Positions 3,303 to 3,678 of a stretch of DNA of 16,776 nt are shown piece by piece. The notes beneath the pieces were generated by a model. The model was given only the letters and a program-made list of their open reading frames with translations. It made no database searches and was not told the origin of the DNA. The position numbers and the translations under genes were made by a program. Each line of letters starts with the position of its first letter. Position 1 is the first letter of the stretch. Location of the stretch: assembly GCF_003334765.1 (NCBI RefSeq), contig NZ_QOWT01000053.1; one strand, 5' to 3'. This DNA comes from Escherichia coli. Lineage in GTDB: Bacteria; Pseudomonadota; Gammaproteobacteria; Enterobacterales; Enterobacteriaceae.

Positions 3303-3350
3303 CTAAACGTCTCCACTATATATTCGGTCATCATGTGGTTGTGAGTCTGT

Positions 3351-3377
3351 AATAGGGGCGAAACGTCTGGTTTCAAC
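3351..3377 (-). promoter_or_regulatory. sigma32 heat-shock promoter (dnaK P2-like): -35 GTTGAAA, -10 CCCCTATT
   Basis: On the - strand, TTGAAA (window 3371-3376) followed 12 nt later by CCCCTATT (window 3351-3358); matches sigma32 consensus CTTGAAA-N13-15-CCCCATNT. Confidence 0.6.
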
Positions 3378-3423
3378 TGCCCAATTTCATTTTTTTGCAG
3401 ACTCACTCACTGCGGTTGACTAC

Positions 3424-3452
3424 TAAATGGGGTCGTAACCCACGTCATCAAG
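3424..3452 (-). promoter_or_regulatory. sigma32 heat-shock promoter (dnaK P1-like): -35 CTTGATG, -10 CCCCATTTA
   Basis: On the - strand, CTTGATG (window 3446-3452), 13-nt spacer, CCCCATTTA (window 3424-3432); near-consensus sigma32 promoter ~120-150 nt upstream of the dnaK start. Confidence 0.7.
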
Positions 3453-3520
3453 GGGGAGATGCAAAAATTTTTTGTGCTTTTGCGCAGAAATTTCGCGATA
3501 TGGCAGGACAAGACGTAAAA

Positions 3521-3549
3521 TTGACAGCAATTTTATTCATATAAAGAAT
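3521..3549 (+). promoter_or_regulatory. Candidate sigma70 promoter for yaaI: -35 TTGACA, 17-bp spacer, -10 AAGAAT
   Basis: Perfect TTGACA at 3521-3526; AAGAAT at 3544-3549 (4/6 match to TATAAT) in an AT-rich stretch ~130 nt upstream of the yaaI ATG. Motif reading only. Confidence 0.25.
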
Positions 3550-3678
3550 GAATCGCAGCCAAGGCATTCATCAAAAAATTGTAATAAAAAGAAAAGATTA
3601 CGTGCCTGAATCTTCTCTTTATCAGCAGTAAACTAGTGGGTATTCATCCCCCTACCTCTTCCCACTAAGAGAATCCTT

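Follow-up and report, generated by a model that had tools for sequence, protein, structure and literature searches.

The two heat-shock promoters of dnaK in Escherichia coli, dnaKp1 and dnaKp2 in RegulonDB (sigma32 consensus TNtCNCcCTTGAA / CCCCATtTa), are among the best-characterized promoters in bacteria. Their dependence on rpoH is established knowledge and is cited as such in a 2025 Salmonella paper. That paper also describes both RpoH sites in the Salmonella spacer between yaaI and dnaK, which measures 347 nt, and calls them "100% conserved" with E. coli. Start sites for the divergent neighbor, yaaI, are likewise in RegulonDB, so the importance of this region beyond annotation is small. 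Two other kinds of described system invite comparison with it: enterobacterial gene pairs that stand back to back and share regulatory sites, and promoters that emerge de novo by point mutation in AT-rich DNA.

Here we compare these systems with the dnaK-yaaI region of an E. coli strain other than K-12. The window, by which we mean the whole 16,776-nt stretch of DNA that was analyzed, corresponds to the beginning of the E. coli chromosome in reversed orientation; a K-12 coordinate equals 15465 minus the window position. The matching genes of K-12 MG1655 are, in order, dnaJ, dnaK, yaaI, yaaW/mbiA, satP, mog, and talB, with the orientation reversed relative to the window. Bases 3303-3678 are the whole intergenic region, a spacer of 376 bp with dnaK (- strand) on one side and yaaI (+ strand) on the other. 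Matches to the 576 bases around it occur in 5425 of 5426 complete E. coli genomes, where the annotation reads dnaK followed by yaaI (DUF2541). Several strains, NZ_CP025903.1 for example, are 100% identical to the window over these 576 bases. We think it very likely that the region consists of two control modules that stand back to back and are independent of each other: the heat-shock promoters of dnaK and a separate group of promoters for yaaI.

The gene yaaI (3679-4083, + strand) encodes a 134-residue DUF2541 protein (Pfam DUF2541, E = 1.6e-36), and yaaW (4109-4822, + strand) follows 25 nt after it. No terminator-like site was found on the + strand between the two. This result and the 25-nt gap make cotranscription plausible, and yaaI and yaaW probably form one transcription unit. 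In a full-text literature search under the names yaaI, b0013, DUF2541, UPF0412, and STM0011, no work on the function or regulation of the gene came up.

The sigma32 promoters of dnaK

A sequence-only reading of the window had placed two sigma32 promoters on the - strand of the spacer and had called them textbook for dnaK. Both are present where that reading put them, with the motifs it gave, and they are the two sites known as P1 and P2. P1 (3424-3452, - strand) is made up of the -35 element CTTGATG (3452-3446), a 13-nt spacer, and the -10 element CCCCATTTA (3432-3424). P2 (3351-3377, - strand) has the -35 element GTTGAAA (3377-3371), a 12-nt spacer, and the -10 element CCCCTATT (3358-3351). 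Measured against the consensus CTTGAAA / CCCCATNT, P1 carries two mismatches at N13 and P2 carries three at N12.

As bare patterns, these sigma32 matches do not go beyond chance. A scan for CTTGAAA-N11-16-CCCCATNT with up to two mismatches returned 2 sites against 0.89 expected; with up to three mismatches it returned 14 against 9.8. Because the patterns by themselves are unexceptional, we judged the reality of the features from other evidence.

Mapped transcription starts are one such source. The Cappable-seq data of Ettwiller for MG1655 record + strand starts at K-12 positions 12048 and 12123, with scores of 60.6 and 112, followed by weaker starts at 12140 and 12155. The first two correspond to A 3417 and A 3342 in the window, 7 nt past the -10 element of P1 and 8-9 nt past that of P2. 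RegulonDB and the EHEC Cappable-seq study, in the entries available for dnaK, likewise put the starts at distances of 115 and 40 nt before the ATG, with minor ones at 19-21 and 6 nt. In a start-site set that covers four conditions (E/S/G/H) and includes heat shock, 12048 appears in stationary phase, with glutamine, and upon heat.

Binding data agree with the mapped starts. In the yaaI/dnaK spacer, genomic SELEX with the RpoH holoenzyme peaked at 12044, at P1, with dnaK marked as the target; the resolution of the method does not separate P1 from P2. To follow conservation, we aligned 30 sequences, namely the window and 29 other enterobacterial loci with the yaaI/dnaK arrangement, 26 of them from outside Escherichia. 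Among those 26 genomes, identity to the window is 91% in the dnaK leader, 86% in P2, 81% between the promoters, and 82% in P1. The -35 and C-rich -10 elements of both promoters are invariant or nearly so in the 29 other loci, and the P2 -35 element is unchanged in all 30 sequences. Mapped starts, the SELEX peak, and conservation across genera are each independent of the motif scan. We therefore conclude that P1 and P2 are real, and that they are the classical dnaK promoters already known.

Within E. coli, 3303-3490 is invariant except for one SNP carried by K-12 in the P1 spacer. This is the single difference between the window and K-12 in the dnaK half of the region. The starts are the same, and nothing of substance sets the promoters in the window apart from dnaKp1 and dnaKp2.

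Two flanking features complete this half. On the upstream side of P1, the A/T tract ACAAAAAATTTTTGC (3461-3475, - strand) spans -44 to -58, the position of an UP element. The A/T run is retained in all aligned genera at 66% identity, and it may act as an UP element for P1. On the downstream side, the dnaK 5' leader from P2 (3303-3342, - strand) contains the ribosome-binding site and, 19-21 and 6 nt before the ATG, the minor starts. In the arrangement we propose, the first module runs from 3303 to about 3477 on the - strand, where P1, P2, and the minor starts near the ATG drive dnaK-tpke11-dnaJ.

Start sites and promoters of yaaI

The yaaI side had been thought poorly described, but its start sites are already known. 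RegulonDB v10.5, as reproduced in Supplementary Table S5 of the EHEC start-site paper, lists yaaI starts in MG1655, taken from high-throughput sets, at distances of 39, 127, and 152 nt before the ATG. Cappable-seq of EHEC EDL933 adds a gTSS at 11953, 150 nt upstream, which appeared in each of four exponential conditions as well as in stationary M9 cultures. Over 3491-3690, K-12 is identical to the window, and EDL933 differs by two SNPs, at 3559 and 3565, away from the starts. Given this near identity, the starts transfer directly to window positions 3640, 3552, and 3527 (RegulonDB) and 3529 (EHEC). The published entries consist of positions only. To them we add what we infer from the sequence: -10 assignments, a derived distal allele, and a conserved proximal promoter with a 23-bp block upstream.

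We matched -10 hexamers to the starts by distance only, and each pairing is a prediction. The proximal promoter (3606-3640, + strand) would combine a weak -35 element, CTGAAT (3606-3611), with a 17-nt spacer and the -10 element TAAACT (3629-3634); the start at G 3640 lies 6 nt past this hexamer. For the middle promoter (3540-3552, + strand), the third yaaI start, at A 3552, would use TATAAA (3540-3545). The distal promoter (3516-3529, + strand), which is lineage-specific, would use TAAAAT (3516-3521) for the starts at 3527 (RegulonDB) and 3529 (EHEC). No recognizable -35 element accompanies the distal or the middle promoter.

The proximal -10 element is the one that other genera keep. It takes the form TAnnAT in 28 of the 30 aligned sequences and TGAAAT in two Pseudocitrobacter; the variants aligned at this site are TAAACT, TAAAAT, TAAGAT, TATTAT, TATGAT, and TAATAT. 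T1 and T6 never vary, A2 and A5 occur in at least 90%, and the hexamer lies 37-50 nt from the ATG. The ancestral, conserved promoter of yaaI is probably this proximal one. Its activity is indicated by one RegulonDB entry, as listed in the EHEC supplement, and by conservation. The start at 3640 was not detected in the eight EHEC conditions or in two K-12 start-site sets of lower depth.

Further start-site sets yielded nothing for yaaI. That of Kim 2012 contains no yaaI or yaaW start, but it is shallow, and its one entry for dnaK is 12157, at 4 reads. Nor does yaaI appear in the SMRT-Cappable-seq supplements. On arrays its signal is about 5.7-6.1 (log2) versus about 13 for dnaK. A weak -35 element and a good -10 element below a conserved upstream block form a layout typical of promoters that depend on an activator or an UP element. 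Such a layout fits both the near-background array signal and the absence of yaaI starts from two shallow start-site sets. With respect to the general stress response, the gene (t0011) is reported as decreased in an rpoS mutant of Salmonella Typhi under hyperosmotic stress. In E. coli arrays comparing wild type with rpoS, yaaI is unchanged and at background level.

The distal starts could in principle serve something other than yaaI. They might produce a separate leader RNA, a short peptide, or a regulatory 5' UTR, and the long leader does contain an ATG-initiated 27-codon ORF (3548-3631) and two inverted repeats (3588-3599/3609-3620 and 3634-3640/3661-3667). We consider this extremely improbable. 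The region of the ORF is not conserved outside Escherichia, and the middle start at 3552 falls within it; none of the small ORFs in the spacer is conserved outside Escherichia, and we rejected them as genes. The inverted repeats were rejected as RNA structure as well, since the Escherichia outgroups carry no compensatory changes. No terminator-like site was found in the spacer. Across the whole window, the Rfam gathering score is reached only by tpke11, in the dnaK-dnaJ spacer, and by the thr leader. The dnaK-yaaI spacer holds no Rfam element, and the best hit of a permissive scan of 3200-3800 is a chance-level RsmV (E = 0.74). The distal starts are better read as starts of yaaI itself.

The TTGACA hexamer and the distal allele

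A perfect TTGACA in the AT-rich part of the spacer, 3480-3600, had been proposed to drive yaaI. The hexamer is present on the + strand at 3521-3526, and G+C in 3480-3600 is 32% versus 51% in the whole window. In the window as a whole TTGACA turns up 4 times, where 9.85 would be expected. If it were the -35 element of the main sigma70 promoter of yaaI, its partner would be AAGAAT (3544-3549) and the start would lie at about 3555-3558. A sigma70 pattern scan indeed returns exactly TTGACA-17-AAGAAT (3521-3549), with 10 of 12 matches, and AT-rich DNA is the usual setting of promoters. However, the one site found is no more than shuffled sequence yields (1.0 +/- 1.3).

The recorded starts do not fit this pair of hexamers. 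A start near 3556 would be implied, and the RegulonDB and EHEC entries as tabulated for yaaI contain none at 3555-3558. A yaaI start had been predicted at 3550-3560, and the RegulonDB start at 3552 does fall in that zone, close to the position that the pair would specify. Its geometry, however, is not that of TTGACA-17-AAGAAT: it lies only 2-3 nt past AAGAAT, which is too near, but at the canonical distance from TATAAA. TTGACA cannot be the -35 element for TATAAA either, as the 13 nt between them are too short for -35/-10 spacing. The sole EHEC start, 3529, comes just after TTGACA, which would make the hexamer part of the discriminator and initial transcribed sequence of that promoter. Its first T is the last T of the distal -10 element TAAAAT, so that it sits directly over the distal start at 3527/3529.

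The distribution of the hexamer points the same way. Five sampled E. coli alleles have TGAAAC/CTGACA in place of TAAAAT/TTGACA. Two cryptic Escherichia lineages and E. albertii, which serve as outgroups, also have G at 3517 and C at 3521. TTGACA is missing from every other genus aligned, and across these genera the 30-sequence alignment shows no conservation of the TTGACA/TAAAAT positions. Among the 5426 E. coli genomes, the exact 30-mer around TTGACA occurs in 2035 (about 38%), and most of the others differ from it by two mismatches. Because the other alleles and the outgroups share G 3517 and C 3521, we take TAAAAT/TTGACA to be the derived state, reached by G to A at 3517 and C to T at 3521. 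We regard TTGACA as a by-product of the 3521 substitution, at the wrong spacing for every mapped start, and its role as the main yaaI -35 element is improbable.

What the two substitutions appear to have created is a -10 element. In the allele shared by the window, K-12, and EDL933, the changes at 3517 and 3521 would have turned TGAAAC into TAAAAT and given rise to the new distal start at 3527/3529, which in EHEC is active in exponential growth. This resembles the de novo emergence of promoters by point mutation in AT-rich DNA: two substitutions separate the two hexamers, and in strains with the derived allele a start lies 6-8 nt downstream. The difference is that the start-site data come from derived-allele strains only, and the gain of function is what the comparison of alleles suggests. 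On this reading, the distal yaaI promoter would be a natural example of a promoter made by two point mutations, and one that is polymorphic within E. coli.

Relation of the two modules and the conserved block of yaaI

The two halves of the spacer differ in how they evolve. Within E. coli, 3491-3678 is polymorphic, in contrast to the nearly invariant dnaK half. Between the modules lies an apparently unconstrained stretch, 3476-3534, which in the allele of the window holds the distal yaaI promoter. Across genera its identity is 28%, its length varies, and the alignment is broken by many gaps. Closer to yaaI, identity rises to 75% in the block 3573-3601. The second module would extend from about 3535 to 3678 on the + strand and would drive yaaI and probably yaaW. 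Its ancestral core would be the proximal promoter, with a good -10 element (TAAACT), a weak -35 element (CTGAAT), and an invariant 23-bp block from -61 to -39.

Compared with enterobacterial divergent pairs that share regulatory sites, dnaK and yaaI have the same back-to-back arrangement, with 110-223 bp from the P1 start to the yaaI starts. Unlike those pairs, they are separated by the poorly conserved gap of variable length, and we found no shared or overlapping element in their spacer. This pattern suggests two independent modules that evolve separately, and it argues against heat-shock co-regulation of yaaI-yaaW with dnaK.

Such co-regulation had been raised as a question by the sequence-only reading, and it could arise in two ways: from sigma32 acting toward yaaI, or from negative supercoiling generated by transcription of dnaK. 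The second is physically possible, as the P1 start and the distal yaaI start lie back to back 110 bp apart. A published label also speaks for a link. Cho et al. 2014 assigned the unit yaaI;yaaW to the class "DH" (sigma70 plus sigma32). Moreover, htgA (htpY, mbiA), which lies antisense within yaaW, was once described, in the accounts available, as a heat-shock gene.

Several observations speak against a link. The "DH" start is a site with 6 reads at K-12 12381, inside the dnaK coding sequence and without a recognizable promoter, and it was seen in stationary phase and with glutamine, not upon heat. The label itself is probably spill-over from the dnaK ChIP peak. The SELEX peak, as noted above, lies at P1 and has dnaK as its marked target, and a later study of the sigma32 regulon reportedly found that htgA is not induced by sigma32. 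On the + strand of 3303-3678, no match to the sigma32 consensus exists at up to three mismatches. The E/S/G/H start-site set, which includes heat shock, contains no start on the yaaI strand of the spacer, although this set is shallow. Finally, the sequence between the modules varies freely in composition and length, and this speaks against a shared element. Shared control of yaaI-yaaW by heat or stress through this region has no support, and we judge it very improbable. Separate control of dnaK and yaaI remains the reading that we favor.

If yaaI is controlled separately, the 23-bp block upstream of its proximal promoter is the most conspicuous candidate element. The block, TTGTAATAAAAAGAAAAGATTAC (3579-3601, + strand), spans -61 to -39 relative to the start at 3640. 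All 23 positions are identical in Escherichia, Citrobacter, and Salmonella, and related variants occur in Klebsiella and Kluyvera. It can be read as an inverted repeat, GTAAT-N11-ATTAC, or as a direct repeat of about 10 bp. E. coli contains no second copy, and a full-text search did not find the block sequence quoted in the literature. Its conservation and its position suggest a binding site for a transcription factor or an UP-like element.

The block and the ATTCAT repeats were compared with the consensus sites of ArgR, CRP, CpxR, PhoB, IHF, and RcsAB, none of which is known to fit in both spacing and conservation. An IHF-like match nearby, ATCAA-N4-TTG at 3570-3581, is confined to Escherichia and was rejected as a candidate.

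Tentatively, the block could serve as operator for a regulator that has so far not been linked to the locus, which would place yaaI, and perhaps yaaW, in an unrecognized stress regulon independent of sigma32. This is a possibility that we hold with considerable doubt. If it is right, YaaI, a periplasmic DUF2541 protein, would be a member of a specific stress regulon that does without sigma32, as YaaW probably would, and the two-SNP de novo promoter would have allowed about 38% of E. coli to bypass control by the block. Through the candidate operator, a regulator and with it a condition might also be found for the uncharacterized YaaI. The form that the block takes in Kluyvera is a 10-bp direct repeat, with TGTCATAA occurring twice, an arrangement that would suit a response regulator.

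Allelic variation in the dnaK–yaaI spacer

The two halves of the dnaK–yaaI spacer evolve differently within E. coli. The dnaK half (3303-3490) is invariant, whereas the yaaI half (3491-3678) is unusually polymorphic, with identity as low as ~93%, small indels and 1700 E. coli genomes falling within the 90-95% identity band. Part of this variation forms two alleles distinguished by two SNPs, at window positions 3517 and 3521. The window, K-12 and EDL933 carry TAAAAT/TTGACA, found within an exact 30-mer in 2035 of 5426 genomes. The other allele reads TGAAAC/CTGACA. Judged from sequence comparison, TGAAAC/CTGACA is the ancestral state and TAAAAT/TTGACA the derived one. 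The mapped distal start of yaaI (3527/3529; -10 TAAAAT at 3516-3521) falls at the derived allele, which therefore looks like a de novo promoter that is naturally polymorphic. On the dnaK side, the window has C (+ strand) at 3439, within the 13-nt spacer of the sigma32 promoter P1, compared to A in K-12. Every other sampled Escherichia shares the window's base, making K-12 the exception.

Conserved and repeated elements upstream of yaaI

A 23-bp block upstream of yaaI, TTGTAATAAAAAGAAAAGATTAC (3579-3601, + strand), is identical at 23/23 positions in Escherichia, Citrobacter and Salmonella. In our alignment the flanking DNA is scrambled among these three genera, unlike the block itself. The block contains GTAAT-N11-ATTAC, and its counterpart in Kluyvera, CTGTCATAAGTTGTCATAATT, can be read as a 10-bp direct repeat. 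We consider the block a candidate operator for some factor. Nearby on the + strand lie nested inverted repeats, ATTCAT (3535-3540), ATGAAT (3548-3553) and ATTCAT (3566-3571). The two ATTCA copies in this stretch, spaced 31 nt apart, are partially conserved between genera in the alignment, and the repeats are not known to fit any consensus site.

Additional starts and a further sigma32-like match

Two further transcription starts lie within the genes that flank the spacer. One, detected by Cappable-seq with a score of 5.5, lies inside yaaI and is antisense to it, reading in the dnaK direction (window 3922, - strand; K-12 11543, +). The other lies inside the dnaK coding sequence and is antisense to dnaK (window 3084, + strand; K-12 12381, -; 6 reads). 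The published sigma70 and sigma32 "yaaI;yaaW" transcription unit rests solely on this 6-read start, and we found no promoter-like sequence upstream of it. Searching the whole window for the sigma32 pattern with up to two mismatches returned a sole match besides dnaK P1: ATTCAAA-N12-CCCCATGT (16737-16763, - strand), which sits in the arcA-yjjY intergenic region, oriented to yjjY, and may be a chance occurrence.

The yaaI neighborhood in relatives

In one E. coli strain (NZ_AP027788.1, L040; 1526-2500), the IS30-like element ISApl1 has inserted ahead of yaaI, ~150 nt from its ATG, and within that stretch the upstream neighbor of yaaI is no longer dnaK. A pattern search of the 1.5 kb upstream of yaaI in a Lelliottia genome (L024) did not find the dnaK start. 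One Sporosarcina assembly includes a 548-bp contig (L032) that codes for a YaaI N-terminus at 69% identity; this contig probably stems from contamination with enterobacterial DNA. Downstream, the yaaW orthologue (4109-4822, + strand) goes under the RefSeq PGAP label "msyB: acidic protein MsyB" in other strains, EDL933 among them (L034 and L040). In K-12 the same gene is yaaW, "putative enzyme-specific chaperone"; the two labels look like a naming inconsistency for one orthologue.
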